Shown in pieces: positions 8,659 to 61,708 of a DNA stretch of 64,000 bases. A program made the position numbers and the translations under genes. Numbering within the stretch: position 1 is the first letter of the stretch; the number at the start of each line of letters is the position of its first letter. Origin of the DNA: an uncultured Isosphaeraceae bacterium. Lineage in GTDB: Bacteria > Planctomycetota > Phycisphaerae > Phycisphaerales > SM1A02. The notes below the pieces were generated by a model. It was not told where the DNA came from, searched no databases, and was given only the letters and a program-made list of their open reading frames with translations. The stretch spans positions 374,160-438,159 of the forward strand of contig CAYOWQ010000001.1 in assembly GCA_964407695.1 (NCBI GenBank), written 5' to 3'.

Positions 8659-8696
8659 TTGTCGGCGACCCCTTGGCCCGATACTGATTGCTGCCG

Positions 8697-10632: not shown

Positions 10633-10658
10633 GCGAAAACCTCCTCAGGTCAGATAGC

Positions 10659-16591: not shown

Positions 16592-17598
16592 CCGTTTTGC
16601 CACTTGGTTCGGCTGAAGCAGTCCGAACCCCGCAGCGCCGATCAAGCGCGCCGGCCGTCTGGATCTGGGCCGGAATGCTGATCGGAATGTTGCTGGCCTG
16701 CCTCGCCACGCTCCCGTGGACGATGGGATCGGAGAGCTCGGGGCATGGTGCGGCCCAGAGCCGTCGGTACGAGGCCACGAACCTCGATCTCAATCTCCTC
16801 CCCCCACGGTGGTGGATGCACTCGCCCGACGATCGGGTGCGCCTGGAAGGTGCGGATTCGGCCGCGCTGCCGCCACGGTGGCTGGGAACCGATCGACTCG
16901 GCCGAGATGTTGGGATTCGGTGTCTTGCCGGCGGCGGAATCAGCCTCGGAATCGGGCTCGCAGCTGCGGCGATTGCCGTCCTGATCGGTACGCTCTATGG
17001 CTCGTGGTCGGGGTATGCGGGTGGGAAGACCGATGCGGTGATGATGCGGATTCTTGACATCCTCTACAGCCTTCCATCAATCCTGCTGGTGGTGTTGCTC
17101 GCGGTTGCAGTCGAGGGATATCTCGCGTCACGAGGGACCGATCTTGGCCCGGTGCAGCGTCAGGCGGTGAACGTTGCCACGCTCCTGTTGGCTATCGGCG
17201 GCGTCAGCTGGCTGACGATGGCGCGAGTCATCCGCGGCCAGGTGCTCAGCTTGAAACAGCGGCCGTTCATCGAGGCGTGCCGAGCGATGGGAATGTCAAC
17301 GCCGCGGATCTTCTGCAGACATCTGCTTCCGAATCTCCTGGGGCCGATCACGGTCTATGCGACCTTGACGGTACCGGCCGCGATTCTCTCGGAATCGTTT
17401 CTGTCGTTCCTGGGAATCGGGGTCAAGGAGCCGCTTCCGTCATGGGGAAATCTTGCAGCGGATGGACTGAGCGAGCTGAACCTCGTCAATTCTCACTGGT
17501 GGATGCTGCTGTTTCCGTGCCTGTTTATCGCAGTGACGCTCCTGGGTCTGAACTTCATCGGCGAGTCGCTCCGAGCGCGATTCGATCCGGGGCGTTAG
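16588..17598 (+). CDS. Peptide/nickel ABC transporter permease, OppC/DppC type (copy 1)
   Basis: LGTDRLGRDV box and EAA-loop region IEACRAMGMSTPRIFCRHLLPN. Confidence 0.88.
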   Translation: MTVLPLGSAEAVRTPQRRSSAPAVWIWAGMLIGMLLACLATLPWTMGSESSGHGAAQSRRYEATNLDLNLLPPRWWMHSPDDRVRLEGADSAALPPRWLGTDRLGRDVGIRCLAGGGISLGIGLAAAAIAVLIGTLYGSWSGYAGGKTDAVMMRILDILYSLPSILLVVLLAVAVEGYLASRGTDLGPVQRQAVNVATLLLAIGGVSWLTMARVIRGQVLSLKQRPFIEACRAMGMSTPRIFCRHLLPNLLGPITVYATLTVPAAILSESFLSFLGIGVKEPLPSWGNLAADGLSELNLVNSHWWMLLFPCLFIAVTLLGLNFIGESLRARFDPGR

Positions 17599-17709
17599 AT
17601 CGGGTTCTGCACGGGATCGGCCCGAAGTGGCGGACGTATTTGATCATGGTCGGTGTTGAACGTAGTCTAAACATTCTCACCTCCCGTCGTTGGAAACAGA
17701 CACACTCAG

Positions 17710-19665
17710 ATGCAGCAGCGATTCGGAATCAAAGATCTTGTCGTCATCGTGCTCCTTCTGGTGATCAGCGCGAGCATCTGGATTGGGATGTTCCAACGCG
17801 ATCGCGAATGGAAGAACCTGCTGGCCATCCAGAGCAAATTAGGCCAACTGGAGAACGACGTCGCGCGGCTGACGGGCAAAGTGGCGGAGATCAAGATTCC
17901 AGCGCCGGTCGTGATGCACGCATCGCCGACGGCTCCGTCAGCGGAACACAGTTCCACACCACCCAAGGGCGATGGAAATCCCAGCGCTGCGTCCGTGGAA
18001 TGGGCGCGTCCCGGTGTTGCGGTCACGATGGCCAAGCCGTATGAACCGGGTCGCGACCCGCGCCTGCAGGCGGGGTTCGCGGAAGGCGGGGAGTTTACGG
18101 AGATCTTTGAAGCACAGATGCCGAAGGTGGTTCCGTATCTGTCGACAGACAATTATTCGCGACGGGCCATTGATCTCGTCTGCGACACCTTCGCGGATTT
18201 CGACCCCAACACGCTGGAGTTGAAGGGGGTCCTGGCCGAGGCGTGGCAGTTCGACCCTCAGGGCCTGTGGCTCCGCATCAAGATTCGGGATGACGCTGTT
18301 TTCTCCGACGGCACTCCGGTCACCGCCGAAGATGTGCGATGGACGTTTCAAGACTATGTGATGAACCAGACGCTTGAGACCGAGCGATATCGATCGACGC
18401 TGCGGGATCAGATCAACCGGTGCGTGGTCATCTCGCCCAAGGTTGTCGAGTGGGAGTTCAAGGAGGCGCTTTTTTCAAATCTCGAATCCGGGCTGACCCA
18501 ATGGATCCTTCCAAAGCACTTCTATTCACAGTTCAGCGGCGAGCAACTGAACCAGGCAACCGGTCTGCTCATGGGTTCCGGACCGTTCATGGTTGAAGGA
18601 CTTGATCCGGATCGGCAATGGGCGCCGCCGGCCCCATTGAAGCTGGTGCGCAATCCGCGGTATTGGGGATTGCGACCGCCGCTGGATGCGATCCGATATC
18701 TTGCGATCAATGATGAACTTGGCCGCGTAACCGCATTTCGCAACGGCGAAGCGGAGATGGTGACGCCATCCGCGCCGCAGTTCAGGGCGTTGACCAGGAC
18801 GGCAGGGTGGGATCGGGAGGCTCAATCGCTGAACTGGATCAACATGCGGTCGGGCAATTCATTCATTGCGTGGAATTGCGGCGAGCGTGGATCGACCGGC
18901 AAGCTGACACCGTTTCACGACAAAAAGGTGCGACAGGCGATGACCTACCTTCTGAATCGAGAGAAGATGGTGCAGGACATCTGGGATGGCGTCGGCATGG
19001 TGAGCAAGGGCGTTGCCAACCCGTCATCGCCGGCGTCGCCGCCAGACATGGAGCCGTATCCCTATGACGTGGCAAAGGGGAAGGCGCTGTTGCGCGAGGC
19101 CGGTTGGGAGGATCGAGACGGAAACGGAATTCTCGAGGATCCGCAGGGGAATGAGTTCGTCTTCGAGTTCACCTATTCCTCGGGCGGTGAGATTTCGCAG
19201 CGGATTGCGGTGTTTGTGCAGGATGCGTACGCTCGGGCGGGAATCAAGGTGACGCTGCATCCGATCGACTGGTCGATCGGCGACAGCATTCGCAACGCGC
19301 GTGATTTCGACGCCTTTACGATGGCCTGGGGCGCCAATGCCCCGGAGAGCGACCCTCGGCAGATCTGGCATTCCGAATCGATCAAGAACGGCGGCGACAA
19401 CTTCATTCAGTGGAATTGCCCTGAGGCTGACAAGCAGATCGATGCCGGCCGGCGCGAGCTCGATTACGAGAAGCGAATGAAGATCTGGCATCAATTCGAG
19501 TATGTGGTCGCCGACGAGCAGCCATACACCTGGATCCGTGTTCAGCCGTACCTGCGGTTCATTTCACCGAAGATTGGGAATGTCAATCCGTTTCGGAAGG
19601 GACCGGAGATCCGGGAGTTCTTCCGCCTGAGCGGCGGTCCATCGACCCCCATGTCCGGCGGCTGA
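17710..19665 (+). CDS. ABC transporter substrate-binding protein, family 5 (OppA/DppA-like), membrane-anchored
   Basis: N-terminal TM LVVIVLLLVISASIWIG and a coiled-coil stretch, then an SBP_bac_5-like body (FSDGTPVTAEDVRWTF, WGANAPESDP). Confidence 0.85.
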   Translation: MQQRFGIKDLVVIVLLLVISASIWIGMFQRDREWKNLLAIQSKLGQLENDVARLTGKVAEIKIPAPVVMHASPTAPSAEHSSTPPKGDGNPSAASVEWARPGVAVTMAKPYEPGRDPRLQAGFAEGGEFTEIFEAQMPKVVPYLSTDNYSRRAIDLVCDTFADFDPNTLELKGVLAEAWQFDPQGLWLRIKIRDDAVFSDGTPVTAEDVRWTFQDYVMNQTLETERYRSTLRDQINRCVVISPKVVEWEFKEALFSNLESGLTQWILPKHFYSQFSGEQLNQATGLLMGSGPFMVEGLDPDRQWAPPAPLKLVRNPRYWGLRPPLDAIRYLAINDELGRVTAFRNGEAEMVTPSAPQFRALTRTAGWDREAQSLNWINMRSGNSFIAWNCGERGSTGKLTPFHDKKVRQAMTYLLNREKMVQDIWDGVGMVSKGVANPSSPASPPDMEPYPYDVAKGKALLREAGWEDRDGNGILEDPQGNEFVFEFTYSSGGEISQRIAVFVQDAYARAGIKVTLHPIDWSIGDSIRNARDFDAFTMAWGANAPESDPRQIWHSESIKNGGDNFIQWNCPEADKQIDAGRRELDYEKRMKIWHQFEYVVADEQPYTWIRVQPYLRFISPKIGNVNPFRKGPEIREFFRLSGGPSTPMSGG

Positions 19666-19713
19666 GCCACTTCTTGACCCGGAGCGCCCTGTTCAAGAGG
19701 GCTGTGATCTCGC

Positions 19714-21228
19714 ATGCTCACCTACATTATTCGACGAGTGCTGCTGATGATCCCGACGTTGCTCGGGATCACCTTTCTCGTCTTCATGTTGGTGGCGTTG
19801 GCGCCGGGAGGAATCGGGGCAGCGCTGAAGGCGTCGGGGGGCATGCTGCAACCGGGGTCGAGTCGGGCGGCACAGGAGGCGTATCTCGAGGATCGGTATG
19901 GACTGGATGCGCCGGCGCCGGTGCAATACATCCGATGGCTGGCCAGGATTTCGCCAATCAAGTTCGGGCAGCAGGATCAGGTGTTGCCGAGCGGGGATCT
20001 GATTCGGCCGCCGAAGGACCTGAATGAGCCGCCGAAATGGGAATGGTTCACCGAGAAGCTTCCCGAGGCCGACACGAACGCAATCGCGATGCCGGAAACG
20101 GGGAGCACGGTTGAGAGATATCGTGCGGTGGAACGAGGAAATTCGGACCTCCGCGGCGAGTACATCGTGGCCGCCGCGGTTTACAAGGAAGCCTTGGTGG
20201 CGTATGCCAAGGCGACCAAGAATTACTCGGCCGTCAATGGCGATGGCAAGATTGTTCCGTCGCATCTTCCAGACCAGCCGGATCGATCATCTTCGGAGTG
20301 GGGCAACGTGGAGCGAACGGGTCTGCGGACGATGAAGGCCTATTCCGCGGCCCGCGCGGGTCAGGAGCTGTTGAAGGAGGCATTTGAGGCCAAGCCGTAT
20401 CCGGAGGCGGGGTTCGCCATCATTCCGGGGGTGATCAGCATTGGCTGGCCGGATTTCGGGTTTGCCTATTCGCGGACGCGCCCGGTGACGGCATTGCTTG
20501 GAGAAGCGCTTCCGGTGACGCTGCTTCTGAATCTGACTGCGTTTCCCATCATCTATCTTGTCGCAATCCCAGCAGGCATGCTGGCGTCAGCCCGGCGAGG
20601 CACCTGGATTGATTCGGTACTTGGGGCGAAATTCATCGTCCTGTGGTCGTTTCCGGTGGTGTTGGCGGGGGTGCTGTGTCTCGGGTTTCTCGCCAGCAAG
20701 GAATATCTGGGATGGTTCCCGTCCAACGCGCTGCACGACAAGATGGCGGACACGTTTGCTTTACTGCCGAGTTTCACCGAGGCCGGATTCGAGCGCGGAT
20801 ACCTGCTTGATACGTTGTGGCACATGTGCCTGCCGGTCTTGTGCCTGGTGTATGGTCAGTTCGCCCTGCTCTCCAAACAGACGCGGGCGGCCATGCTGGA
20901 CAATTCCAATGCCGACTACGTGCGGACCGCGCGGGCGAAGGGCGTGGCGAGCCGGGATGTGCTCTTCAGGCACATCTTTCGCAACAGTCTCCTGCCATTG
21001 ATCACGATGTTTGTTTCACTGTTTCCCGCGATCCTTGCCGGCAGTGTGATTGTGGAGCGGATCTTTTCCGTGCCCGGGATGGGATGGCTAACGATTGAAG
21101 CGATCAACCTTCGGGATCGCGAGCTGCTCCTCGCCAACACGTTGATGATCGCCACGGTGAACCTGTTTGCGCTGCTCCTGGCCGACATCCTGTACGCCGT
21201 TGCCGACCCGCGAATCTCATACGAATAG
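19714..21228 (+). CDS. Peptide ABC transporter permease, OppB/DppB type, with a long periplasmic loop
   Basis: MLTYIIRRVLLMIPTLLGITFLVF. EAA region YVRTARAKGVASRDVLFRHIFRN. More than 200 aa separate TM1 and TM2. Confidence 0.88.
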   Translation: MLTYIIRRVLLMIPTLLGITFLVFMLVALAPGGIGAALKASGGMLQPGSSRAAQEAYLEDRYGLDAPAPVQYIRWLARISPIKFGQQDQVLPSGDLIRPPKDLNEPPKWEWFTEKLPEADTNAIAMPETGSTVERYRAVERGNSDLRGEYIVAAAVYKEALVAYAKATKNYSAVNGDGKIVPSHLPDQPDRSSSEWGNVERTGLRTMKAYSAARAGQELLKEAFEAKPYPEAGFAIIPGVISIGWPDFGFAYSRTRPVTALLGEALPVTLLLNLTAFPIIYLVAIPAGMLASARRGTWIDSVLGAKFIVLWSFPVVLAGVLCLGFLASKEYLGWFPSNALHDKMADTFALLPSFTEAGFERGYLLDTLWHMCLPVLCLVYGQFALLSKQTRAAMLDNSNADYVRTARAKGVASRDVLFRHIFRNSLLPLITMFVSLFPAILAGSVIVERIFSVPGMGWLTIEAINLRDRELLLANTLMIATVNLFALLLADILYAVADPRISYE

Positions 21229-22901
21229 TGCATCCCGTGGCGACCCAACAAGAATCTCAGGCTGTGCGACTCTCGGGAATTGACGTCATGCGCGGCGTCG
21301 GCCTGACACCGGCAAAGCCTTTCTGGGCGGACGCCTGGAGCCGGGTGATCAAACGGAGAGGAGCCATCTTCGGCCTCTGTTGGATCGTGGTTGTTCTTTT
21401 CTTCGCGGTCTTTGCACCATTGATAGCGAATGGACATCCGATCCTCTTGCGAACCATCGGGCCGGACGGGTCCATCCTGAGCACGTCTTCTCCGCTGGTG
21501 AACAATCTGGGTTCGACGGATGTCGCGTTGCTGGCGTTTTTCGGTGTCTTTACAGCATGGTGGTTTCTGCCGCAGAGCCGGTCGTGGGTAGCGCCGGTGG
21601 CGTGTGCGGCGGTGTTTTCGATGGCGGCGCTGGCCTGGGGAATTCATCAGCGATCGCTTGGCGGCTGGTCGATGACGGACCCGTGGCCGAAACTGGGCAT
21701 CGTCAGCCTTGCCGCGCTTTCGCTTGCGGCCGTGGGGATGGTTGTTCCGAGAAACAGGAGATTCGTCGCCGCGCTCTTGGTGTTTGCCCAGATGATCGTT
21801 GTGCTGGTGGTCACGTACGTGCTGATCAACCGCATGTCGCAGCGAGACTTGTCGGATCTGTTTCAATGGATGAAGGCTGACAGGTTGATTGCGTTCCACG
21901 CGTCGGCGGGCGTTGCGCTGCTGGTGGCGTTGGTCTTCGTTGCAGTTCCGGGCATTGCCCTGGGGGTGAGACGGCTCGGCGTCGTGATGTCGACGGCGGT
22001 GCTGGCGGCGTCGGTGAGCGCGATGACGTGGTCGCGTCCACTGGAGACGTTTGCCTATCCTGAGCGGGAGGCGGCGGGTGAGGTTGAGGCGACGTACGTC
22101 CCAATCCCGTTTTCGCCAAACCAGAGATTCAGCGAGCTAAATCGCATCGAACCGCTTCGAAAGCTGAGCGCTTCTCCTACCTATCCGGTTGACTCGAGAC
22201 CCGGGCGCCGGACGTTCATCCTGGGAACCGATGCGTTGGGGGCCGATGTGCTGAGTCAAATGATTCACGCTTGTCGGCTTTCGATCTCCATCGGGCTTGT
22301 GTCCACCAGCATTGCGGTCCTGATCGGGGTGACGATCGGGGCGTTGATGGGTTATTTCGGCGGTTGGGTGGACCTGGTGCTGTTCCGCGTGGTGGAGATC
22401 TTCATGGCGGTGCCGGTCCTGTTTCTGCTGATTGTTGCGGTGGCGGTGCTGCCGGAGGAGTTGCGCAGCACGTACGTGATCATGGCCATCATCGGTTGCT
22501 TTACATGGACGAGCGCCGCGAGGTTTACCCGAGCGGAATTCCTCAAGCTGCGGAGCCAGGACTTCGTGCAGGCGGCCACGGCGGTGGGTCTCCCGCTTCG
22601 GGCGGTTCTCTTCAAGCACATGCTTCCAAACGGGGTGACGCCGGTGCTGGTGGATGCGTCGTTTCTTATTGCGGCGGCGATTCTCGCCGAGGCGACGCTG
22701 TCGTATCTGGGCATCGGGCCGGTGGATCAGCCGTCGTGGGGCAAGCTGCTCTCCAGTGCTGCGAATACGGAAGGTGTCTTCAAGTGGTGGCTTGCAATCT
22801 TTCCGGGCATGGCCATCTTCCTTACGGTGTTGTCGTACAACCTGATCGGCGAAGCGCTCCGCGATGCGATTGATCCGAAGCTCAGAAAGGCTGCTCACTG
22901 A
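21228..22901 (+). CDS. Peptide ABC transporter permease, OppC/DppC type (copy 2), with a multi-helix insertion
   Basis: GTG 21228 overlaps the upstream TAG (ATG 21288 is an alternative start). LGTDALGADV box only at about aa 331. EAA region VQAATAVGLPLRAVLFKHMLPN. Confidence 0.82.
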   Translation: MHPVATQQESQAVRLSGIDVMRGVGLTPAKPFWADAWSRVIKRRGAIFGLCWIVVVLFFAVFAPLIANGHPILLRTIGPDGSILSTSSPLVNNLGSTDVALLAFFGVFTAWWFLPQSRSWVAPVACAAVFSMAALAWGIHQRSLGGWSMTDPWPKLGIVSLAALSLAAVGMVVPRNRRFVAALLVFAQMIVVLVVTYVLINRMSQRDLSDLFQWMKADRLIAFHASAGVALLVALVFVAVPGIALGVRRLGVVMSTAVLAASVSAMTWSRPLETFAYPEREAAGEVEATYVPIPFSPNQRFSELNRIEPLRKLSASPTYPVDSRPGRRTFILGTDALGADVLSQMIHACRLSISIGLVSTSIAVLIGVTIGALMGYFGGWVDLVLFRVVEIFMAVPVLFLLIVAVAVLPEELRSTYVIMAIIGCFTWTSAARFTRAEFLKLRSQDFVQAATAVGLPLRAVLFKHMLPNGVTPVLVDASFLIAAAILAEATLSYLGIGPVDQPSWGKLLSSAANTEGVFKWWLAIFPGMAIFLTVLSYNLIGEALRDAIDPKLRKAAH

Positions 22902-51470: not shown

Positions 51471-52439
51471 ATGAGCAAGAGCGACCCCCTCGTGGTCGGC
51501 ATCGATCTTGGCGGCACCAACATGCAGATTGGCGTGGTCAACAGCGAGCACGCCATCGTTGGTCGCTGTAAGCGGAAAACCAAGGCCGACCTCGGCAGGG
51601 ATGCCGTGATCAAGCGCATCTGCGAGGGTGTGCGACGGGCATGCGACGACGCTCACGTCGATCTGCACGACATGGTGGCTGTCGGCATCGGTGCCCCCGG
51701 TGCGATCGATATTCCCCGCGGCGTGGTCCTGGAAGCGCCGAATCTGAAATGGAACGACGTTCCCCTCAAGGATCTCCTGTTGGAGGAGCTCGACCTTCCG
51801 GTCATCGTGGATAACGACGTGAATGTGGCCGTTTGGGGTGAAGCGAGGCTCGGCGCGGGCCAGGGTCGAGGCGACATGCTTGGGGTCTGGCTCGGCACCG
51901 GAGTGGGGGGTGGTCTGGTCCTCAACGGTCGCCTGTGGCATGGCACCACATTCACCGCCGGTGAGATTGGGCAGACCGTGATCACTCCGGGAGGTCCGCC
52001 CGGCCTCCTCACCGTGGAAGACCATTGCAGCCGCACTGGCATGAGCCACATCCTGAGAAAGCTCATGCAAACCGACCGCGAATCCATTCTGCATCGACTT
52101 GTGGAAGAGGCCGACGGCGCCATCGGATCAAAGATTCTTGCGGAGGCCGTCGAAGCCAAGGATGGGCTCGCCTGTCGCGTTGTGGATCATGCGGCCGAGA
52201 TGCTGGGAATCGCCATTGCCAATTGGGTCACGGTTCTTTCCATCGACACCATCATCATTGGAGGCGGCGTCACCGAGGCTCTAGGTGAACCGTTTGTCGA
52301 CAAGATACGCCCGATCTTTCGGCGCTATGTCTTTCCCGGCCGTCTCAGGGACTGCCTGATCATCACCAGTCGACTTGAGGACGACGCAGGGCTGCTGGGT
52401 GCAGCGCTCCTGGCGCAGGATCAGTTGCTTTCACAATAG
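51471..52439 (+). CDS. ROK-family sugar kinase (glucokinase-like)
   Basis: VVGIDLGGTNMQIGVV, DNDVNVAVWGE, GTGVGGGLVLNG. Confidence 0.88.
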   Translation: MSKSDPLVVGIDLGGTNMQIGVVNSEHAIVGRCKRKTKADLGRDAVIKRICEGVRRACDDAHVDLHDMVAVGIGAPGAIDIPRGVVLEAPNLKWNDVPLKDLLLEELDLPVIVDNDVNVAVWGEARLGAGQGRGDMLGVWLGTGVGGGLVLNGRLWHGTTFTAGEIGQTVITPGGPPGLLTVEDHCSRTGMSHILRKLMQTDRESILHRLVEEADGAIGSKILAEAVEAKDGLACRVVDHAAEMLGIAIANWVTVLSIDTIIIGGGVTEALGEPFVDKIRPIFRRYVFPGRLRDCLIITSRLEDDAGLLGAALLAQDQLLSQ

Positions 52440-52605
52440 TCGGTGGCCCGGGTTCGTCGGCGAGTAACCCGATTCGGCTGATGGGACCGAAATCCTGGTT
52501 GAGATGGGGAATAATTCAGATGTTTGGACGGGGCGACGGTGTTAGACTCATCCATGCGCTGATCAGTTCGATGGAGAACGATCCCAGTTAGGTGCATGAT
52601 TGGCA

Positions 52606-52632
52606 GGTTCCATGCCATATCTTCATGGAACC
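52606..52632. promoter_or_regulatory. Perfect 9-bp inverted repeat GGTTCCATG-N9-CATGGAACC about 50 nt upstream of the ECF sigma gene
   Basis: Arms at 52606-52614 and 52624-52632. Each arm carries GGAAC on one strand. Confidence 0.4.
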
Positions 52633-52681
52633 CGAATGGATTTGGGTTGCAGAATGGCTCAAATCGCGTCGACCGAGACCT

Positions 52682-53299
52682 ATGACCAGAGGGCTGGAAT
52701 TGGGAAACCGTTCACTACTGAAGGGCGCTGCGAGGAGCTCCGGTCATGGTTGTGACCGGGATCTCATCGTCGCGTGCATCGCCGGACGCCAGGATGCATG
52801 GAATACGCTGGTCGAGCGGTATGGTCGGCTCGTCTATTCGATCCCTCGGCGGTACGGACTGAATGAAGCGGATTCTGATGATGTCCACGCCGCGGTCTGG
52901 GGAATCGTCTTCAAACACCTCTCGGCCCTGAAGGATCAGACTCGTTTTTCTTCCTGGCTGATCACAACCGCGCACCGGGAGTGCTGGCGTGTCGCGAAAA
53001 ACCGCGAAGCAAATCTGGAACTCACCTCGCAGATGGCCGGCCCATCGGAACCCTCGGAAGAAGAGGCAAGCCGTTGGGAACGGCAACACGCAATTCGGGA
53101 AGGTTTGATAGAGCTCGGCGGTAAATGTCGAGACCTGCTTGAGGCGCTCTATCTTGCCCGGACGCAGTTGTCCTACGACGCCATTGGTGAACAATTGAAC
53201 ATGAAGCCTGGGAGTATCGGACCTACCCGAGCCCGGTGCCTTGAGAAACTCGAACGGATACTTCTGGCCAAGGGGAACGATTTCGACAGGATTTGCTGA
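52682..53299 (+). CDS. ECF-type RNA polymerase sigma-70 factor
   Basis: Region 2 AWNTLVERYGRLVYSIPRRYGLNEADSDDVHAAVWGIVF..FSSWLITTAHRECW. Region 4 LEALYLARTQLSYDAIGEQLNMKPGSIGPTRARCLEKL. Start uncertain (52592 or 52682). Confidence 0.88.
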   Translation: MTRGLELGNRSLLKGAARSSGHGCDRDLIVACIAGRQDAWNTLVERYGRLVYSIPRRYGLNEADSDDVHAAVWGIVFKHLSALKDQTRFSSWLITTAHRECWRVAKNREANLELTSQMAGPSEPSEEEASRWERQHAIREGLIELGGKCRDLLEALYLARTQLSYDAIGEQLNMKPGSIGPTRARCLEKLERILLAKGNDFDRIC

Positions 53300-53419
53300 C
53301 CGGAACCGCTCCTGACCTGCGAAAATGGCGCAAAATGGCAAGAGCTGCCCATTTCCGCGTATTTCCGAGCCGCCGGACGCCCTCTTGTTGTGTGTCCGAC
53401 CCAGTTTGGAAGCCTCACC

Positions 53420-54031
53420 ATGACACCCGACGAAATCACAGTTGACATGTTGGTCGCCTTCACGCAGGGCGAGCTTTCGATCGCGGAATCCAAGGAAGTT
53501 GAGGCGGCCACTCTTCGTGACCCCCTCCTTGCCGCTCGATTGAATCGCCTTCAAACGGTGCTACAGACCCTTCGAGAAGACGACACGGTCGAGGTGCCCG
53601 AATCGGTCTTGGCAAGGGCCAGATCAGTCTTCTCGCTCAACGTTCGACCCTCGGAATCGTGGTGGCAGCGAATGGCATCCGTGATTGCGTCCCTGCGATT
53701 TGACAGCAACGCCGCACCGGCCCTGGCGGGCGTTCGTGGAGATCAGGAGACGCGTCAATTGTCCTTTGCCTGGCCCAATGCGATGCTCGACCTGGAAATC
53801 GAGCAACAGCCGAATTCACAGGAGCGCTTGCTCATTGGCCAACTGGACCTCGAGTCCGGGACACCTGATTTGCAGGTTGCCCTGGTGCCCGCCGGCACCA
53901 ATTCCGCGGTCGCCGATGCCGCCGCAGACGCCGGTGGGGTCTTCACCTTGAGAGCACCTGAGGGAGTCTATGACCTTCTAGTTCTTTCAGGTGAATGCGT
54001 CATCAAGGTCCCCGGAGTCCATATTCGCTGA
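53420..54031 (+). CDS. Anti-sigma-like protein with no TM helix or zinc motif
   Basis: Trimmed to ATG 53420. N-terminal helical segment DMLVAFTQGELSIAESKEVEAATLRDPLLAARLNRL in the anti-sigma position. C-terminal beta-sandwich-like GVFTLRAPEGVYDLLVLSG. No hydrophobic span and no HxxxCxxC. Confidence 0.5.
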   Translation: MTPDEITVDMLVAFTQGELSIAESKEVEAATLRDPLLAARLNRLQTVLQTLREDDTVEVPESVLARARSVFSLNVRPSESWWQRMASVIASLRFDSNAAPALAGVRGDQETRQLSFAWPNAMLDLEIEQQPNSQERLLIGQLDLESGTPDLQVALVPAGTNSAVADAAADAGGVFTLRAPEGVYDLLVLSGECVIKVPGVHIR

Positions 54032-54061
54032 CTGTCAGGTGGATCCGAAGCATGAGTCACC

Positions 54062-56920
54062 ATGAGTGTCGAGTCGCCACAACAGCTCTTGAAGGAACTT
54101 CTCACCCTGTCACCGGAGTTGAGGCAGCGTCGTCTCCTTGCGACGCGTGACGTCGAGGGGGCTCTTGTCCAGTTGAGCGAAACCGCCGGCAGGAGTGGGT
54201 TCCAGTCAGTTTCTGCGGGGCTTGAGGCCACCGCCCTCGTTCTTTCGCTTTCGGATGAAGCTGAGGCGATCAGGCCAAGGGTTCATGCAAGAATCGCTCG
54301 ATCCCTCGCTCTGTCGCACAGCGGGCGATTCTCCGAGGCAATCGAGATGGCTGAGGAAGGAAGAAGTATCGCGTCCGCGGCTGATCTTGACCTTGAGGTC
54401 GCACGCTGCGATCTCGCCCTGATGCACCCAATGACGAAGGTGGGTCGCATTGACGAGGCGATCAACCGCGGTTTGGACGCTCGAGCGACATTCCAGTCGG
54501 CTGGCGAGACCGCCTTGATCGGACGTGCCGATCTGAATCTTGGCAACGTGTACAAGACCCGGGGCGATGGAGATGCCGCATTAAAGCATCTGACTTCCGC
54601 GGCTGAGGCCCTTCGAAGTGATGTGGTCCTGCGAGCACAGATTGAGAACACGCGGGGCAACGTGCTGCTGCTCATGGACCGATTTGCAGAGGCCGAGGCG
54701 GCCCATGAGCTTGCGTGGCGACTCCTGATCGACGAATCAATGCCGGCGGCTGCAGCAGTCGTCGAAGGCAATCTTGCGGATCTTCATGCGCGAATGGGTC
54801 GTCTCGATTCGGCCATTCGTCACTTTGAGCATGCGCGGAGCCAATATTCAGGAAGTGGAACCGAGCGGCATGTCGCCCGCCTGCTGATCGAGCAGGGCGA
54901 TGCGGTCGAGGTGCTCGGTCTTGTCGAAGAGGCTCTTGAGGCCTACGAGCAGGCTGCGGTGCATCTGGACAAGTTGAGCCTGACCGCCGAGCGAGCCCGT
55001 GCGTTGTGCGGGAGGGGCCGATGTCTTCTGCGATTGGATCGCGACTCAGAGGCGCGTCATCTGCTGGAACAGGCTCGCGAGACGTATTTCTCGCTGGGGG
55101 ATCAGCGTGCCGGCGCGCAGGTTCAACTGCTCCTGGTCGAGTTGATGCTGGCGGAGGGCAGCATCGAACAGGCGGGTCCAGTGCTCGAGCAGACACTCGG
55201 CTCTTTCGCCTCCCTGTCAATCGACAGGGCGATTGCGATGTCGATGCTGGCCCGTGTCCATCAATGGGCAGTCAGTCCGGCCGAGGCGGAAGCGGCCGCG
55301 ACGGAATCCGTGGCCATCGCTCGCATGTTGCGGGTCCCGACGATCCTGGCGGAGTGCCTGGGTACTCGCGCCTCGATTCGACTGGAGGCCGACAGGCTCG
55401 ACGACGGGATCAGCGACCTTCGTGAAGCCATGATGGAGGTGGAACGGGTTCGTGGAACCTTTCAGGCCGAACGATTTCGCACGGCATTCCTGGGCCGGCG
55501 ACTGGCGATCTATGAAGATCTGGTCCTCGCGGTCCTGAGGCGAAACGATGTCGAATCCATCGCTGAGGCGTTCGCCGTGGCTGAGAGGGCAAAGAGCCGG
55601 GCCTTGCTTGATCTTGTCAAGGGGGCCATCGACACCGTTGAATCCGATGGTTCGGCCACCTCATCCGGTTCGCAGCTTCTGCAGCAGCTTCGTCGTGAAC
55701 TGAATGCCTTGTACAGTCAATTAGATCGGAACGGCCAGGCCGATCAGCGACGTCTGAGCCCTGTCCGCTGGCACGAGGCGATTCAGGCCCGCGAGGTCGA
55801 ACTTGAGCGACTGGAATCCACGCTCGTTGAGTCTCGAGGCCCCGCAACACTTCTGGCGCCGACCATCGACGCGTCAGGCGTCGCGGACCTTGTGGGCTCT
55901 TCCGCGGCCATCGTTGAATACTTTGTAGCCGGGGCAGAGCTGATGGCCTTCGTCGCAACCGCGGATGGGCTGCGGATTGTCCGCAATCTTGCCACGACTG
56001 AGGCTCTGCATGAGCAGGTGATGCGGCTGCAATTCCAGATTCGACGGGTCTTCCGCCCGGGAATCGGTCCTGCAAACTCCACGCCTCGAATGGTCGAGCA
56101 ATGCCGTCGGGAGTTGCATGAGCTCTGGTCAATGATCCTCAATCCGATGGAGCCGTTGCTGGCGGAGATGGATCAGGTCACCTTCGTTCCCCACGGTCCG
56201 CTTCACCTGGTTCCGTTTGCAGCGCTTCACGACGGCCATGGGTATCTGGTCGATCGATTCAGACATTCCGTTGCTCCAAGCGCGAGTGTCCTCGCGGCCA
56301 CGAAATCGAGGCGAAGCGCCGAATCGGGTGGTCGGTTGCGGGCCATGGTGGTTGGCGTGGCGGACGAGTTTGCGCCGCGAATCGATGTTGAGGCTGCAAC
56401 TGTTGCGTGTCAGTTGCGACAGGCTCGGCAGGACGTCACCACGCTGATCGGCCCGGAGGCGTCTGTTCGCCATGTCCTTGATTCAATCCAACACGTAAGT
56501 CTGGCGCACTTCGCCTGCCACGGCACCTTCAACCCGAGGTTCCCTCGAGCATCAGGACTTCGCCTGGCTGATCGCTGGCTCATGGTTCGAGAGATCTATT
56601 CACTTTCGCTCAAGGCCGAATTGATCACGCTAAGCGGCTGTGAGACCGGGAGGTCACTCGTGCGCAAGGGTGATGACTTGCAGGGACTTACAAGCGCGTT
56701 TCTGACGGCCGGCGCCCAGAGCCTTCTCGTAACGCTTTGGACGGTCAACGACGTGGCGGCGGCCACGTTCAATGAACACTTCTATCCCGCCTGGATATCC
56801 GGTGTTGAGGGCTGTCGCGATGCGGCGTCGGCCCTGCAGCATGCGCAACAGACTGTTCGCGCTGCGTTCCCGCATCCTGCGTATTGGGCGGCATTTTCTC
56901 TGGTTGGAGGACTCCAGTGA
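54062..56920 (+). CDS. TPR-repeat CHAT-domain (caspase-like) protease, cytoplasmic
   Basis: No signal peptide. About 500 aa of TPR-like repeats. C-terminal CHAT with HFACHG (His820, nt 56519-56521) and LSGCETG (Cys860, nt 56639-56641). Confidence 0.85.
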   Translation: MSVESPQQLLKELLTLSPELRQRRLLATRDVEGALVQLSETAGRSGFQSVSAGLEATALVLSLSDEAEAIRPRVHARIARSLALSHSGRFSEAIEMAEEGRSIASAADLDLEVARCDLALMHPMTKVGRIDEAINRGLDARATFQSAGETALIGRADLNLGNVYKTRGDGDAALKHLTSAAEALRSDVVLRAQIENTRGNVLLLMDRFAEAEAAHELAWRLLIDESMPAAAAVVEGNLADLHARMGRLDSAIRHFEHARSQYSGSGTERHVARLLIEQGDAVEVLGLVEEALEAYEQAAVHLDKLSLTAERARALCGRGRCLLRLDRDSEARHLLEQARETYFSLGDQRAGAQVQLLLVELMLAEGSIEQAGPVLEQTLGSFASLSIDRAIAMSMLARVHQWAVSPAEAEAAATESVAIARMLRVPTILAECLGTRASIRLEADRLDDGISDLREAMMEVERVRGTFQAERFRTAFLGRRLAIYEDLVLAVLRRNDVESIAEAFAVAERAKSRALLDLVKGAIDTVESDGSATSSGSQLLQQLRRELNALYSQLDRNGQADQRRLSPVRWHEAIQAREVELERLESTLVESRGPATLLAPTIDASGVADLVGSSAAIVEYFVAGAELMAFVATADGLRIVRNLATTEALHEQVMRLQFQIRRVFRPGIGPANSTPRMVEQCRRELHELWSMILNPMEPLLAEMDQVTFVPHGPLHLVPFAALHDGHGYLVDRFRHSVAPSASVLAATKSRRSAESGGRLRAMVVGVADEFAPRIDVEAATVACQLRQARQDVTTLIGPEASVRHVLDSIQHVSLAHFACHGTFNPRFPRASGLRLADRWLMVREIYSLSLKAELITLSGCETGRSLVRKGDDLQGLTSAFLTAGAQSLLVTLWTVNDVAAATFNEHFYPAWISGVEGCRDAASALQHAQQTVRAAFPHPAYWAAFSLVGGLQ

Positions 56921-58434
56921 ATCACGTTTCGTCAATCCGAATCCGGATCGCCCTTTGCTGGGTCGCCATACTGATTGGCATCGTCTTACACCCGCAGACG
57001 GTCGGTGGGGGCGTTCCTGTTGTCTTTGAAGATCCCCCGGTTCCCGGCCGGGTCATCGTTCGAACGACGTCGGATGAGAATCTGGCGACGTTCCTGGACA
57101 ATTTTTCGGGCCAGTATGAGGATGTCGCAGTTTCCAGGTCGATTGATTCTCGCCGGATCTATCTGATCAGCTACTTGCTCGGAAGTGGGCAAACCCTCCT
57201 CGAGGTGCAGGCATTTCTCGACGGGCAGGTCGGACAAGGAACCTTGAAGTGGGGAGAGCTGGTCTATCAGGGGCAGGCCGCCGAGGGCAAGACCGATGAA
57301 CTGTGGACCGCACAGATCGGAGTTGGCACACGGCAGTTCGAGCAGCAGTATTCATGGAATCTGATCGATGTTTCGCTCGCGCAGTCGAAATCCCGTGGCG
57401 GCGGCACGGTCATCGCGGTGCTTGACACCGGGGTTGACGCAACTCACCCGCTCTTTGAGGGGGCCGTGAAGGCGCAATACGGCTGGAACGTTCTCACAGA
57501 CTCCGACGCCACATTTGAATCCCTGGCTGCGCCTCCGACTGACTCTGACAATGACGGGCTGTTCAACGAGATGGTCGGGCACGGGACTTTTGTCGCGGGC
57601 CTCATCCATCACATGGCGCCAGAAGCGTCCATCATGCCCGTGACGGTGCTTGATACCAACGGCGTCGGTGACACGTTCTCCATCATCGCCGGTATGTATT
57701 ACGCGATCGATCACGGTGTCGAGGTCATCAACATGAGCCTCGGCTCCACTTATCGGATGATAGGTGTTGAGGAAGCTGTGGCAGAGGCCTACGGACTTGG
57801 CATTATCGTGGTGGCCGCCGCGGGAAACTTCAACGTCGATGATCCCCGCGAGAACCCCGCCACGATTTCCGAGTCCATTGGTGTTGCAGCAACGGATTCG
57901 GACGACATCAAGGCGCCGTTCAGCAACTACCACCCCAAACTTGATCTTTGCGCGCCCGGCCACAGCAAGAAGATGGCAGGCAATAACAGCAAATTCGACC
58001 CGGCGAAGTCCATCGTTGGGCCGGTTCCCAACAATGGCTACGCCATCTGGAAGGGCACTTCCTTCTCGACCCCAATGGTGGCTGCTGCAGCGGCGCTGAT
58101 CCGAAGCCAGCATCCGGAGTGGTCGGCGGATGCCGCGACGTCAATCCAGGTGTTGACGGCGTTGCAGGCCGGCTCAGTCGATATCTATCCCAAGAACCCG
58201 GACTACGAAGACGACGAATCGCTGGGTCAGGGTCGGCTTCACGTTGGCAACGCTGTCAATGCAGGCCCTGTGGCGCCCCAGGTGGGCGACTTGAATGCCG
58301 ACGGCATCATTGATGGAGGAGACCTCGGAATTCTCCTGAGCGCATGGGGTGCGGTGCACAGCAGTGCAGACCTTGACGGCAACGGAAAGGTCGACGGCGG
58401 CGACATCGGAATCCTGCTCGCCGCGTGGAGCTAG
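56917..58434 (+). CDS. Secreted S8 subtilisin-family serine protease with a C-terminal twin dockerin-like module
   Basis: GTG 56917 overlaps the CHAT stop (GTGA). Signal/anchor IRIALCWVAILIGIVL. Triad VLDTGVD (nt 57424-57426), HGTFVAG (nt 57580-57582), GTSFSTP (nt 58060-58062). Tail GDLNADGIIDGGDLGILLSAWG..DLDGNGKVDGGDIGILLAAWS. Confidence 0.9.
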   Translation: MNHVSSIRIRIALCWVAILIGIVLHPQTVGGGVPVVFEDPPVPGRVIVRTTSDENLATFLDNFSGQYEDVAVSRSIDSRRIYLISYLLGSGQTLLEVQAFLDGQVGQGTLKWGELVYQGQAAEGKTDELWTAQIGVGTRQFEQQYSWNLIDVSLAQSKSRGGGTVIAVLDTGVDATHPLFEGAVKAQYGWNVLTDSDATFESLAAPPTDSDNDGLFNEMVGHGTFVAGLIHHMAPEASIMPVTVLDTNGVGDTFSIIAGMYYAIDHGVEVINMSLGSTYRMIGVEEAVAEAYGLGIIVVAAAGNFNVDDPRENPATISESIGVAATDSDDIKAPFSNYHPKLDLCAPGHSKKMAGNNSKFDPAKSIVGPVPNNGYAIWKGTSFSTPMVAAAAALIRSQHPEWSADAATSIQVLTALQAGSVDIYPKNPDYEDDESLGQGRLHVGNAVNAGPVAPQVGDLNADGIIDGGDLGILLSAWGAVHSSADLDGNGKVDGGDIGILLAAWS

Positions 58435-58714
58435 GGTCGCGGCGACGCTGATTGACGCGGGGACGAGGCCGGGCGGTCAAGACACCCATTGAGTCCATTG
58501 AGGGCTGGCTTCGGACCCGCCGGTGTCCGGCGCCCGTGGCTGTCATTGCCGTGGGTCTCGCGGTGCGGCCAGGTGGTCTGGTTGAATCCGGGGTCAAGAT
58601 AATTTTGCAGTGGGATGTATCAGCCGCACTTCACCGCGACTCTGCTGGAGCGAAGAGGACAGTCGAGTTGCTCGGCTGAGAAGTGAACAAGAGTGAAAGA
58701 CGAGGATATTTCTC

Positions 58715-61117
58715 ATGAATCATGTGACACGATTAGGCTTCGGCTCATCGTTTCTGTTTATCGCAACGCTCTCGGCGAGCACTGCGCACGCGCAGTTCAC
58801 CATCGACCCGGCCACGAATTTCGTGGTTGGGCAGCAGCCCAGCGACGTGGCTGCAGGCGACTTTGACGGCGACGGGGACGTCGACCTCGCCACCACCATT
58901 GACGCTCCCGATCGCGTTCAGATCCTGCTCTCCTCAGGTGGCACTGCGACCTATTCCCTCGGTCCGGTGTTTGCTCTCCCCGCATCCTCAAGCCCCGGCG
59001 ACATTGTGGCCGGTGATCTCGATGGCGATGGCGACATCGATCTTGCCGTTGCCCTCAAAGACAACAATCAGATCATTGTTCTGAAGAACGCCGCTGGGTC
59101 ATTCTCCACCGCCGGCACGTTTGCCACAGGTGATGAACCGCGCGGGCTCGACATCGCTGACCATGATGGCGATGGCGATCTTGACCTCGCCTGTGCCAAC
59201 CGTAAGAGCGACAATGCCACCGTTCTGACCAATGACGGAACGGGTGCGTTCGCATCCCAGACCATTGCGGCCCAACTCGATCCCAGGGCAGCCTCATTTG
59301 GAAACTTCGATGGCGACGCTGACCTTGATCTTGTGGTCACCAACCACGACAGCCGCACGCTCACGGTCTATACAAACACCAACGGCGCCTTCTCCCAAAC
59401 GGCCGTGCTCTCGGTCGGCACCCTGCGGCGACCGGAGGGGGTAACGACCGCCGATTTCGACGGCGATGGCGACATCGACATTGCAGCCGCTACCAACGGC
59501 AACACCCTTCAGGTCAATAGCGCGACGATTTTCCTCAACAGCGGCGGCACATTTAGTGGTCCGTTCCATTACGCCACGGGCGGCGTTGATACGTCAGACA
59601 TCGCCGCGGCCGACATGGATTGCGATCAGGATATTGACATCGTTGTGGCCAACAACAGCTCAGCCAATATCTCGGTTCTGCCGAATATCGGCGGCGGTGC
59701 CTTTGGAGCGGCTCAACTGTTCGCAACGGGATCTGAACCCGAGAACGTAACACTCGCGGATCTCGACAACGACTCCGATGCCGATATCGCCGTCGCCAAC
59801 AAGGCTTCCAACACCGTCAGCGTGCTCAATAACAAGTGCATTCCGACGGATCCTGGTCAGAATGGCGGGGGCCCCGGCCCTGGACAGGGCGCAAACCCAG
59901 GTCCGGTTGCCGGCTTCAGCATTCCGACAGGCGTTTCGGTCGGTGTAGGCGTGAAGCCCGCCGGGATCACCGACATTGATTTCGACTCCGACGGAGATCC
60001 TGACATGGCCGTCACAGTCGACAACCCCGATCGTGTCCAATTCCTGGTCAACGCCGGCGGCGCATTCAGCCTTGGTGGTGTGATTCTCCTTCCTGTGTCG
60101 TCCAGTCCGGATTCGCTTGTCTCTGGCGATCTGGATGGCGATGGTGACGCCGATCTTGCTGTCACGCTGAAGGACAACAATCAGGTCATGGTTCTCTTGA
60201 ACTCCGGTGGACTCTTCGCCTCGGCGGGTACGTTTGCCACGGGCTCGGAACCGCGCGGTCTCGCCATTGGCGACGTCGACGGCGATGGCGATCTTGATCT
60301 GGCCGTCGCCAACCGATTCTCTGATTCCGCTACCGTGGGCATGAACAATGGATCCGGCTCCTTCACCGCGATCTCACTCGCTGCAGGGGCTCAACCGCGT
60401 GCCGCGGCCATCGGCGACGTCGACGGGGATGGGAATGGCGAGGTCATGGTCTCCAATCATGACAGCCGCACCATCACGGTGTTTGAGCATCAGACGCGCA
60501 ACACCTTTGCCGTTCGAAACACCCTGAATGTTGGCGGACTCGTGCGTCCGGAAGGCGTCATTGCCGCCGACCTGAATGGTGATGGTCTGGCCGACATTGC
60601 CGCCGCGACCAACGGCGACAACCCCGCCTTCGAAACGGTGACGGTCTTCCTGAGCGACGGAACTGCGTTCGGCGCGCCGGCGTTCTATAAGACTGACGGC
60701 ACCAATACGTCGAATCTCAATGTGGCCGATCTCGATTGCGATGGCAGCCTCGACATCATCACCACCAACGAAGTCTCCAACAATGTGTCGCTTCTCGCCA
60801 ACAGTGGCGCTGGTGTCTTCGGTCCGGCGATGCTGCTGCCCACCGGAACGACCCCGCAGGCCGTTGCCGTCGGCGACTTTGATGGTGACTCAGATTCCGA
60901 CTTCGCGACCGCGAATCGTGACAGCAACAATGTCACGGTCTTCACGAACGACAGTTGCTCCGCGATTCCCGGAGACCTGAACGGTGACGGCGCCGTTGAT
61001 GGTTCCGACCTCGGCTTGCTGCTTGCAGACTGGGGCAACGCGGGTGCCGGCGATCTCAATGGTGACGGCACCACCGACGGTGCCGACCTTGGACTCCTCC
61101 TCAGCTACTGGATGTAA
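58715..61117 (+). CDS. Secreted FG-GAP/VCBS repeat protein: two tandem seven-bladed propellers plus a twin dockerin-like module
   Basis: Signal MNHVTRLGFGSSFLFIATLSASTAHA|Q. 14 DxDxDGDxD blade motifs arranged 7+7, separated by the G/P linker IPTDPGQNGGGPGPGQGANPGPVAG (59840-59914). Tail GDLNGDGAVDGSDLGLLLADWG..GDLNGDGTTDGADLGLLLSYW. Confidence 0.88.
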   Translation: MNHVTRLGFGSSFLFIATLSASTAHAQFTIDPATNFVVGQQPSDVAAGDFDGDGDVDLATTIDAPDRVQILLSSGGTATYSLGPVFALPASSSPGDIVAGDLDGDGDIDLAVALKDNNQIIVLKNAAGSFSTAGTFATGDEPRGLDIADHDGDGDLDLACANRKSDNATVLTNDGTGAFASQTIAAQLDPRAASFGNFDGDADLDLVVTNHDSRTLTVYTNTNGAFSQTAVLSVGTLRRPEGVTTADFDGDGDIDIAAATNGNTLQVNSATIFLNSGGTFSGPFHYATGGVDTSDIAAADMDCDQDIDIVVANNSSANISVLPNIGGGAFGAAQLFATGSEPENVTLADLDNDSDADIAVANKASNTVSVLNNKCIPTDPGQNGGGPGPGQGANPGPVAGFSIPTGVSVGVGVKPAGITDIDFDSDGDPDMAVTVDNPDRVQFLVNAGGAFSLGGVILLPVSSSPDSLVSGDLDGDGDADLAVTLKDNNQVMVLLNSGGLFASAGTFATGSEPRGLAIGDVDGDGDLDLAVANRFSDSATVGMNNGSGSFTAISLAAGAQPRAAAIGDVDGDGNGEVMVSNHDSRTITVFEHQTRNTFAVRNTLNVGGLVRPEGVIAADLNGDGLADIAAATNGDNPAFETVTVFLSDGTAFGAPAFYKTDGTNTSNLNVADLDCDGSLDIITTNEVSNNVSLLANSGAGVFGPAMLLPTGTTPQAVAVGDFDGDSDSDFATANRDSNNVTVFTNDSCSAIPGDLNGDGAVDGSDLGLLLADWGNAGAGDLNGDGTTDGADLGLLLSYWM

Positions 61118-61175
61118 CAGGTCCTTCAGCCATTCGGTCTGAAGCGAGTTCGACTCAATCGCTCTTTTCACTTCA

Positions 61176-61213
61176 GCGAGCCCGTCGCGCGTTGCGGCGG
61201 GCTCGCTTTCAAT
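61176..61213 (+). terminator. Intrinsic terminator after the FG-GAP gene
   Basis: GCGAGCCCGTCGC-loop-GCGGCGGGCTCGC (13-bp stem with one G:U pair) followed by TTTCAATTT. Confidence 0.6.
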
Positions 61214-61708
61214 TTGTCGGTGCACACTGGGAGAACCTCCCGTCGGAAGGTTATGTCTCGGGTCGCCTTGGACTCGCATAAGTCGACCAACTCCTCCACG
61301 ACGCAGCCGAAGAGTTGTGGCGATCCAATCAGGTGTGCCAACGCAGGACCGGCGGGTCACGAGGTCGTGGATGCTTCGCCACCGTGCGTCGTGAGATCGA
61401 CGTTGACGCCCGGGCGACGCTGAGCACCGACTCCACTGCCTTCCCTTGAGGACAGCACGATGACTGCTCGACATCCCGCCAAGGTTCTCCTTCCGGGGTA
61501 GCGGTGCGACGATCGACCGTTCCTTGTCGAACATGTTGAATGATCTCATCGGGCGCCTCCATCACTCATGAGGCACGATGACTGATTGCCTCCACGCCTT
61601 TGCGCCATTGAAGTCGCACCGTATGAATGATGAGTCAGAGAAGGCCGTGGGGAATAGATCGAACGGTCTGGGCGACACGACTGTCGCCGGTAGCGTGCGG
61701 AGAATCGC

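Follow-up and report, generated by a model that had tools for sequence, protein, structure and literature searches.

Why do genes for a sigma factor, a small soluble protein, a caspase-like protease and two exported proteins stand together on one strand of a planctomycete genome, and could the protease control the sigma factor? The five genes lie in a stretch of 64,000 nucleotides (nt), called the window here, from an uncultured Isosphaeraceae bacterium which GTDB places in Phycisphaerae (assembly GCA_964407695.1, contig CAYOWQ010000001.1, positions 374,160 to 438,159). A preliminary description of this DNA had read them as one module, in which a cytoplasmic protease with tetratricopeptide repeats and a CHAT domain (TPR-CHAT) releases a sigma factor of the extracytoplasmic function (ECF) type by cleaving a soluble anti-sigma factor. 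Comparison with related loci showed that the core is a cassette of four genes, encoding the ECF sigma, the soluble anti-sigma factor, TPR-CHAT and an exported subtilase of peptidase family S8, and that the fifth gene, encoding an FG-GAP propeller, stands outside this core as an accessory output gene of certain lineages. We give a probability of about one half to the reading that this cassette works by itself in the cytoplasm as an ECF sigma switch gated by a protease, in which activated CHAT cleaves the anti-sigma factor and the freed sigma fires two promoters, P1 and P2.

All five open reading frames (ORFs) are on the forward (+) strand within 52592-61217, with a ROK kinase gene (51471-52439) before them and a strong terminator-like hairpin (61175-61207) after them, and were present at the coordinates that had been given for them. 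In order, they encode the ECF sigma factor (52682..53299), a predicted two-domain anti-sigma factor of 203 aa (53420..54031), a TPR-CHAT protein of 952 aa (54062..56920), an S8 subtilase of 505 aa (56917..58434) and the propeller protein of 800 aa (58715..61117). The anti-sigma, CHAT and FG-GAP genes are preceded by gaps of 120 nt, 30 nt and 280 nt, respectively. The CHAT and S8 genes overlap as claimed, with the sequence GTGA at 56917-56920 holding both the GTG start of S8 (56917-56919) and the TGA stop of CHAT (56918-56920), and a GGAGG Shine-Dalgarno sequence of the S8 gene ends 8 nt 5' of this GTG. Domain assignment of the window proteins with Pfam and NCBIfam models confirmed the sigma, CHAT, S8 and FG-GAP assignments of the preliminary description.

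Is this arrangement conserved? A profile of the 15 closest TPR-CHAT homologues yielded 80 loci from species-representative genomes, and the six-frame ORFs of these loci were scored with the window proteins and with a hidden Markov model (HMM) of the 203-aa family. Sigma, anti-sigma, CHAT and S8 genes occurred together in 56 of the 67 loci with enough flank on both sides, and the 203-aa family gene adjoined CHAT in 62 of the same 67. The sigma gene was upstream of CHAT in 65 of 73 loci with upstream flank, and the S8 gene was downstream of it in 63 of 73 loci with downstream flank. The carriers belong to at least five phyla: Planctomycetota (mostly Phycisphaerae), Chloroflexota, Acidobacteriota, the actinobacterium Rubrobacter, and Methylomirabilota. 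In Acidobacteriota the same four genes are reordered as sigma-CHAT-anti-sigma-S8 (23/23 loci). Four-base overlaps of the anti-sigma stop with the CHAT start, and of the CHAT stop with the S8 start, recur in many loci. Because the cassette is found again in dozens of independent loci, the adjacency of the five genes is far beyond chance. The supposed five-gene module is thus conserved as a core of four, and the FG-GAP gene was found 3' of S8 in only 5 of the 80 loci (L007, L009, L014, L016 and L056, all Phycisphaerae-type). Four full-length TPR-CHAT relatives from Meiothermus with 28-30% identity (L044, L053, L060 and L065) had no sigma, anti-sigma or adjacent S8 gene. These four loci are a cassette-free sister subfamily, so the link to the cassette is specific to this CHAT subfamily and does not hold for CHAT proteins generally.

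The first protein is assigned to the ECF (group 4) sigma-70 factors by its models: Sigma70_r2 matched with 1.2e-8 and 35.1 bits (cut-off 24), and TIGR02937 (sigma70-ECF), whose cut-off is 42.9, reached 65.4 bits along residues 68-223 of the long ORF. The closest solved structure was CnrH (4cxf_A), matching over residues 24-186. More than 1200 matches were obtained, the orthologues being 50-62% identical, and hydropathy showed no membrane span. The ORF is open from GTG 52592 with alternative starts at ATG 52625 and ATG 52682, and the lengths of the orthologues favour 52682 or a later start.

The second protein gave no match to any Pfam family, no match beyond itself in a word-indexed homologue search, and a weak NCBIfam match to NF010501, 'putative anti-sigmaE' (1.5e-6). 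An exhaustive HMMER search gave 703 representative clusters at 50% identity, almost all of 197-230 aa. A family profile built from 32 orthologues matched over residues 4-93 the anti-sigma domains of DdvA (8rlz_A, 1e-4), ChrR (3e-4), RsiW (6e-4) and RslA (7e-4), and with the same profile C-terminal residues 140-198 matched the carboxypeptidase-regulatory-like immunoglobulin (Ig) sandwich of NOMO2 (3.5e-13). The layout is an N-terminal anti-sigma domain at residues ~4-75 and a C-terminal CarboxypepD_reg-like beta-sandwich. An AlphaFold2 (AF2) model based on 100 homologues, with a predicted local distance difference test score (pLDDT) of 89.5, has four N-terminal helices (8-15, 21-33, 35-53 and 61-72), a low-confidence linker and a beta domain. 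Its top Foldseek match was ChrR in complex with SigE, which is a weak match with consistent architecture. The orthologues (200-240 aa) have no hydrophobic span, the highest 19-residue hydropathy being at most 1.83 and falling in beta strands. The protein had been described by its anti-sigma position and lack of a membrane span; the profile now shows it to be a true soluble anti-sigma homologue with the N-terminal domain of class I anti-sigma factors.

Two features of this family are important for the question of its control. The zinc motif H-x3-C-x2-C is kept in Chloroflexota orthologues (L002, L010, L011, L024, L026, L027, L034, L035 and L040) and in Acidobacteriota, whereas the window protein has ATLRDPLLAAR at this place and the motif is lost also in its Phycisphaerae relatives. 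By its sequence, the window protein therefore has a non-zinc anti-sigma domain. The most conserved block of the family, VAxLxFDSRxxPALAGxRG, ends in Arg106 (nt 53735-53737), which does not vary among 32 orthologues, is at least 90% conserved among 100 and can be recognised in Rubrobacter and Acidobacteriota as well. In the AF2 model the loop around it (residues 101-110) has a pLDDT of ~68, and we consider this residue the best candidate for recognition or cleavage by a protease.

The third protein matched the CHAT domain (3.2e-54, 184.8 bits) and TPR_12. The His/Cys dyad, described before as intact, consists of His820 (nt 56519-56521) and Cys860 (nt 56639-56641); among 35 homologues C860 never varies and H820 is conserved in at least 90%. 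With a CHAT-domain profile, H820 and C860 align with H615 and C658 of Csx29, the reported catalytic residues of that protease (PMC10028731). A profile was needed for this alignment, since a single-sequence search of the CHAT domain against PDB gave no match. The AF2 model (pLDDT 88.3, predicted template modelling score 0.86) shows a long TPR superhelix, an array of 24 helices, followed by the CHAT domain, and Foldseek matched it with separase (3e-16), Csx29 (8eey_B, 1.6e-14) and DdvA (8rot_A, 1e-11). Dyad and superhelix together point to a protease of the separase/craspase type (clan CD). No hydrophobic span was seen by hydropathy, which agrees with the earlier statement that the protein has no signal peptide.

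The S8 protein matched Peptidase_S8 with 1.7e-47 and 162.5 bits. Its triad D170/H222/S382, numbered from GTG 56917 and found in the order expected of the family, is conserved in 68-70 of 70 orthologues; together with the oxyanion residue N304 the range is 66-70 of 70. Assignment as a subtilase of family S8 is supported by this. The protein has an N-terminal hydrophobic stretch like a signal sequence, a propeptide-like region and a C-terminal dockerin-like tag, and its orthologues have a hydrophobic N-terminus in every phylum. The conserved triad and oxyanion residue, with the hydrophobic N-terminus in all orthologues, mean that an active and exported subtilase is under selection as a core member of the cassette.

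Which promoters could the sigma factor use? The sigma and anti-sigma genes are separated by an unusually long gap, which in the window measures 120 nt. In nearly all sigma/anti-sigma gaps of Planctomycetota and Chloroflexota we found a bipartite motif, GTAT(C/T)N, a spacer of 16-17 nt and CTCT(G/A), with GTAT usually 45-62 nt before the anti-sigma ATG; it is also found in the Rubrobacter loci. Of 39 loci from Planctomycetota and Chloroflexota, 36 have GTAT[CT] at 39-110 nt 5' of the anti-sigma start, where 5% is the background (binomial P ~3e-43, a nominal value as the loci are related and relatedness is not corrected for). In the window, the copy before the anti-sigma gene (P1, 53359..53385, +) has a -35-like GTATTT at 53359-53364, a spacer of 17 nt and a -10-like CTCT at 53382-53385, with GTAT 61 nt 5' of the ATG. 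A second copy (P2, 58617..58643, +), with GTATCA at 58617-58622 and CTCT at 58640-58643, lies in the gap before the FG-GAP gene, GTAT being 98 nt 5' of its ATG.

A position weight matrix (PWM) was made from aligned sites and scanned over both strands of the 64-kb window, P2 being outside every training set. With the PWM of all loci, P2 was the best match in the window (score 23.5; 0.005 per window in the null). With a PWM of ten Chloroflexota loci only, P2 was again first (20.2, reached in 0 of 100 null windows) and P1 was second (17.6; null 0.24 per window). Second copies 3' of S8, before genes of secreted proteins, were also found in L002, L007, L014, L015, L016, L026 and L035. The genes behind them encode FG-GAP proteins (L007, L014 and L016), a DUF5666 repeat protein (L002), a GH9/GH5 cellulase (L026) and a dockerin-like repeat protein (L015). 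In the Chloroflexota locus L031, a copy scoring 23.6 stands between CHAT and S8 directly 5' of the S8 gene (12558, +); S8 has its own motif copy there and is not translationally coupled.

Since elements spaced in this way suit an ECF promoter and the sigma itself shows high conservation, the motif is probably the target promoter of the cassette's own sigma. No motif copy was found in the 240 nt 5' of the window sigma gene (52440-52681), and no shared motif was found 5' of the sigma genes of the loci. Because the sigma gene has no copy, the circuit would be a feedback in which sigma drives the anti-sigma, CHAT and S8 genes, and not classical autoregulation of sigma. By eye, TAnnnT boxes that are loosely sigma-70-like lie near the sigma start in many loci, which suggests a housekeeping-type promoter with a short leader for the sigma gene. 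A candidate from gapped-dyad enumeration 5' of the sigma genes, TGGGA...TGAT at -257, was rejected as a promoter; it reflects coding conservation of the upstream peptide-binding-protein gene of Acidobacteriota. The preliminary description had proposed that the sigma drives the pair of exported proteins. This is in keeping with the motif, which is common to the anti-sigma/CHAT/S8 operon and the FG-GAP gene. S8 is not merely a downstream output, because it belongs to the conserved core, shares a putative operon with anti-sigma and CHAT, and is often translationally coupled.

From these parts we infer a switch, including the binding of sigma by the anti-sigma factor, the motif as the promoter of this sigma, the cleavage by CHAT with its site, and the identity of the signal. 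Sigma would have a promoter of its own, in which the shared motif is absent, and the soluble anti-sigma factor would hold it inactive through its N-terminal domain. A cue would engage the 24-helix TPR array and switch on the His820/Cys860 site of CHAT. CHAT would then cut the anti-sigma factor, most plausibly in the flexible loop ALAG-x-Arg106-Gly. The freed sigma would direct RNA polymerase to promoters of the form GTATyN-(16-17 nt)-CTCT. From P1 it would re-express anti-sigma, CHAT and S8, giving a loop of reset and reinforcement. From P2 it would express the FG-GAP propeller, and in other lineages a different secreted protein whose gene occupies the P2 position.

Are such pathways already known? 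The preliminary description knew of no ECF pathway gated by a CHAT protease, but three earlier reports contradict this, one of them as far as its description of gene context goes (PMC10028731, PMC11506125 and PMC8999054, respectively). In the type III-E Craspase, the TPR-CHAT protease Csx29 cleaves Csx30, which binds and inhibits the ECF factor CASP-sigma, and this cleavage lifts the inhibition (PMC10028731). Our cassette is similar in having a cytoplasmic separase-type TPR-CHAT beside an ECF sigma and a soluble putative inhibitor, here an anti-sigma homologue; the catalytic His and Cys align and the folds match. It differs in several points. Craspase has Cas7-11/gRAMP, CRISPR RNA (crRNA), Csx30 and Csx31, whereas no cas genes were present among the ORFs examined in the module, its flanks and the related loci. 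The activating signal here cannot be target RNA bound by Cas7-11. The TPR-CHAT protein scored 45.8 bits with the Csx29 model NF041237, for which the cut-off is 300. The inhibitor is a classical anti-sigma domain with a beta-sandwich and gave no Csx30-like match. Finally, an exported S8 is in the core and the local outputs are secreted proteins, unlike in Craspase.

The second known case is DdvA of Myxococcus xanthus, a transmembrane anti-sigma factor in the DdvA-DdvS pathway which carries its own periplasmic TPR-CHAT domain; the proposed trigger is self-cleavage by CHAT in trans within a dimer, and the DdvS regulon comprises CBASS and CRISPR (PMC11506125). Both systems place an anti-sigma domain and a TPR-CHAT in one ECF pathway, as the profile (8rlz_A, 1e-4) and the fold (8rot_A, 1e-11) also indicate. 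Here, however, they are encoded by two separate genes with a 30-nt gap, the products have no hydrophobic span, there is no membrane step, and the local targets are exported proteins. One protein of the sequence collections Logan and ENA (P0118, 1284 aa) has a zf-HC2 anti-sigma motif (PF13490, 1.1e-6), a TPR array and a C-terminal CHAT domain (1.6e-65) in one chain, which is a DdvA-like fusion of anti-sigma motif and TPR-CHAT.

For the third case, ECF54 (Huang et al. 2015; Casas-Pastor et al. 2021), the relevant passage of PMC8999054 gives a gene context with carboxypeptidase-, subtilase- and CHAT-domain proteins, proposes proteolytic control, and describes the group as having no anti-sigma factor. 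ECF58 of Planctomycetes is the sister group of ECF54 (PMC7826278). Judged by that description only, the context is similar to ours, in which neighbours with a CarboxypepD_reg-like sandwich, CHAT and Peptidase_S8 are conserved in 56 of 67 loci. The difference from that passage is that the 'carboxypeptidase-like' neighbour here is shown to carry an anti-sigma domain.

Two other types of control can be compared. Regulated intramembrane proteolysis by site-1 and site-2 proteases needs an anti-sigma factor that spans the membrane, which the protein here does not. The ChrR-SigE pair of Rhodobacter sphaeroides is alike in its soluble, cytoplasmic, two-domain anti-sigma factor. The C-terminal domain of ChrR is a cupin, whereas the one here is an Ig-like carboxypeptidase-regulatory sandwich, and we know of no CHAT-type protease gene as part of the described ChrR-SigE pair. 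ChrR (PDB 2z2s, 2q1z) was the best fold match and was also matched by the profile.

Several points weigh against the protease-gated switch. The cassette genes would be expected to co-occur just as well if CHAT and S8 were nothing but outputs. As the CHAT gene itself follows a putative sigma-dependent promoter, the switch requires some protease to be present at a basal level. The switch as drawn gives no part to the conserved exported S8. Cleavage sites of Craspase follow Met or Leu and not Arg (PMC11506125), for which reason a preference for Arg is no more than a guess from the analogy with separase. Anti-sigma factors of other phyla that have the zinc motif could respond to redox without any protease. 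In the Acidobacteriota loci no motif copy was found by PWM; the promoter there, if any, differs or sits upstream of the oligopeptide importer (Opp) operon described below. Lastly, a protein that looks like anti-sigma joined to TPR-CHAT (P0241, 1149 aa) turned out to be a frameshift read-through, in which an Arg-rich nonsense stretch replaces the C-terminal sandwich, and it is unusable as Rosetta-stone support for the link of anti-sigma with CHAT.

The first alternative follows from some of these points. The sigma/anti-sigma pair may have a different input, such as redox chemistry, or a ligand or partner that acts on the domains of the anti-sigma factor itself; CHAT and S8 would then be regulon outputs only and act on other substrates. 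This is the main rival, which we regard as possible but on the unlikely side. CHAT and S8 sit behind the putative sigma-dependent P1, as regulon members would. The soluble two-domain layout of the anti-sigma factor resembles that of ChrR, whose C-terminal domain is a sensor; yet in the family here the most conserved feature is an exposed loop with a near-invariant Arg and not a ligand pocket. Many orthologues keep H-x3-C-x2-C, and in characterised zinc-motif anti-sigma factors this motif is targeted, for example, by reactive oxygen species (PMC11506125), but the window protein and its Phycisphaerae relatives lost this motif and still kept the cassette. In at least five phyla, moreover, the anti-sigma gene is strictly linked and translationally coupled to the gene of a TPR protease of regulatory type, which matches the logic of Csx29 and Csx30 and speaks against a separate input.

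Could the cassette instead be an anti-phage or conflict system? In this case TPR-CHAT would be a caspase-like executioner or a sensor of infection, as in Craspase, DdvA and SAVED-CHAT/PCaspase, and sigma would launch a defence programme. Every bacterial link between CHAT and sigma that has been characterised belongs to a defence island (PMC10028731, PMC11506125, bioRxiv 10.1101/2023.06.23.546230), Csx29 and DdvA are among the fold matches, and some genomes have several copies of the cassette (L027; L015/L025). But no cas, CBASS or other defence gene was present among the ORFs examined in the window or in related loci, and PADLOC yielded only generic weak matches and no specific system. The flanks seen are of housekeeping type and vary by locus, L081 for example having methyltransferases, sugar epimerases and a Na/H exchanger. 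Together with the score of the Csx29 model (45.8 bits against 300) and with the nature of the local outputs, secreted proteins of a structural or hydrolytic kind (FG-GAP, GH9/GH5 cellulase, DUF5666), this makes a role in defence decidedly improbable. As to chance adjacency, in which the five genes would be independently transcribed and have no functional link, the gaps of 280 nt before the FG-GAP gene and 120 nt before the anti-sigma gene would permit it, but it is effectively refuted by the cassette in 56 of 67 loci across phyla, the frequent start/stop overlaps, and the same motif in both gaps.

What would be new about the protease-gated switch? In comparison with the systems above, it appears that the recognition of the carboxypeptidase-like neighbour as a bona fide soluble anti-sigma factor, the wide spread over phyla, the loop proposed for cleavage, the promoter motif with its second copy, and the exported S8 in the core are new. 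If the mechanism is true, TPR-CHAT proteases would be general, stand-alone input devices of ECF sigma factors in at least five phyla, beyond the setting of CRISPR and defence islands. The idea that sigma factors in an ECF54-like context have no anti-sigma factor would need correction as well, and the set of sigma, anti-sigma, protease and promoter would give orthogonal parts usable in synthetic biology. The Arg106 loop, the H820/C860 dyad and the promoter motif with two copies at the locus are concrete points for tests.

A hint about the signal may come from the Acidobacteriota-type loci. In ~26 of them, a complete operon for an Opp/Dpp-type oligopeptide importer of the ATP-binding cassette (ABC) class lies directly 5' of the sigma gene on the same strand, abutting or overlapping it (L047:3514-9746; L039, L041, L046-L049, L051, L054, L058, L061-L064, L066-L069, L072-L075, L077-L080). 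This operon encodes OppD and OppF (ATPases with oligo_HPY), the permeases OppB and OppC, and a family-5 binding protein (SBP_bac_5), and with the cassette it forms an array of nine genes. The Opp linkage, the conserved exported protease and the cytoplasmic TPR sensor suggest a peptide-sensing loop, in which S8 would release a peptide, Opp would import it, the TPR array would bind it, CHAT would be activated and the anti-sigma factor would be destroyed. The TPR array would then act like the RRNPP quorum-sensing receptors, which bind peptides imported by Opp. We regard this loop as speculative and, taken as a whole, unlikely. If it is true, there would be a reason for having an exported protease in the core of a switch that is otherwise cytoplasmic, and a caspase-like protease would be the peptide-activated receptor for an ECF sigma. 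In the window itself, Opp-like permease and SBP_bac_5 ORFs are present at 16462-22898 (+), ~30 kb upstream of the module, and they are probably unrelated to it.

The FG-GAP protein had been described as a secreted protein of 14 blades, and the sequence bears this out. Pfam gave 13 FG-GAP_3 stretches (4e-82), and direct reading gave 14 repeats of the DxDxDG type in two sets of seven split by a Gly/Pro linker; the N-terminus reads as a signal peptide. A dockerin tag had been said to be shared by S8 and this protein: the two C-terminal tags are 54% identical over 48 aa (E 5e-15), and two DxNxDGxxDxxD loops are visible in each. They scored 16.9 and 17.8 bits with Dockerin_1, under the Pfam cut-off of 22.9, and with dockerin_GC 20.7 against 29. 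Because the Dockerin_1 scores are below the cut-off, 'dockerin-like' is the safe wording. Among the 70 S8 orthologues, such tags are on those of Planctomycetota only.

Some genomes carry more than one cassette. The Chloroflexota contig L027 has two complete cassettes in tandem (2369-8041 and 8042-12436), and L015 and L025 are two cassettes on different contigs of one metagenome-assembled genome (MAG) of Planctomycetales (CAZGTH01). It means that the module was paralogously expanded in some genomes, as is common for signalling modules with different inputs. Sequences like tRNA lie just 5' of the sigma gene in L015 (~8450-8530) and L036 (~4370-4450), e.g. GGGCGTAGCTCAGTCGGTAGAGCAGCGG...GGTTCGAGTCC, which could hint at insertion next to tRNA genes.

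In the window, the module is flanked by amidase, ROK kinase and SGL genes. Its end is marked by the intrinsic-terminator-like hairpin (61175..61217 with the tail, +), which was read from the sequence: at 61175-61207 there is a 15-bp stem (11 GC pairs) with a 3-nt loop and a T-rich tail TTCAATTTGT, consistent with the clear terminator that had been placed at 61176.

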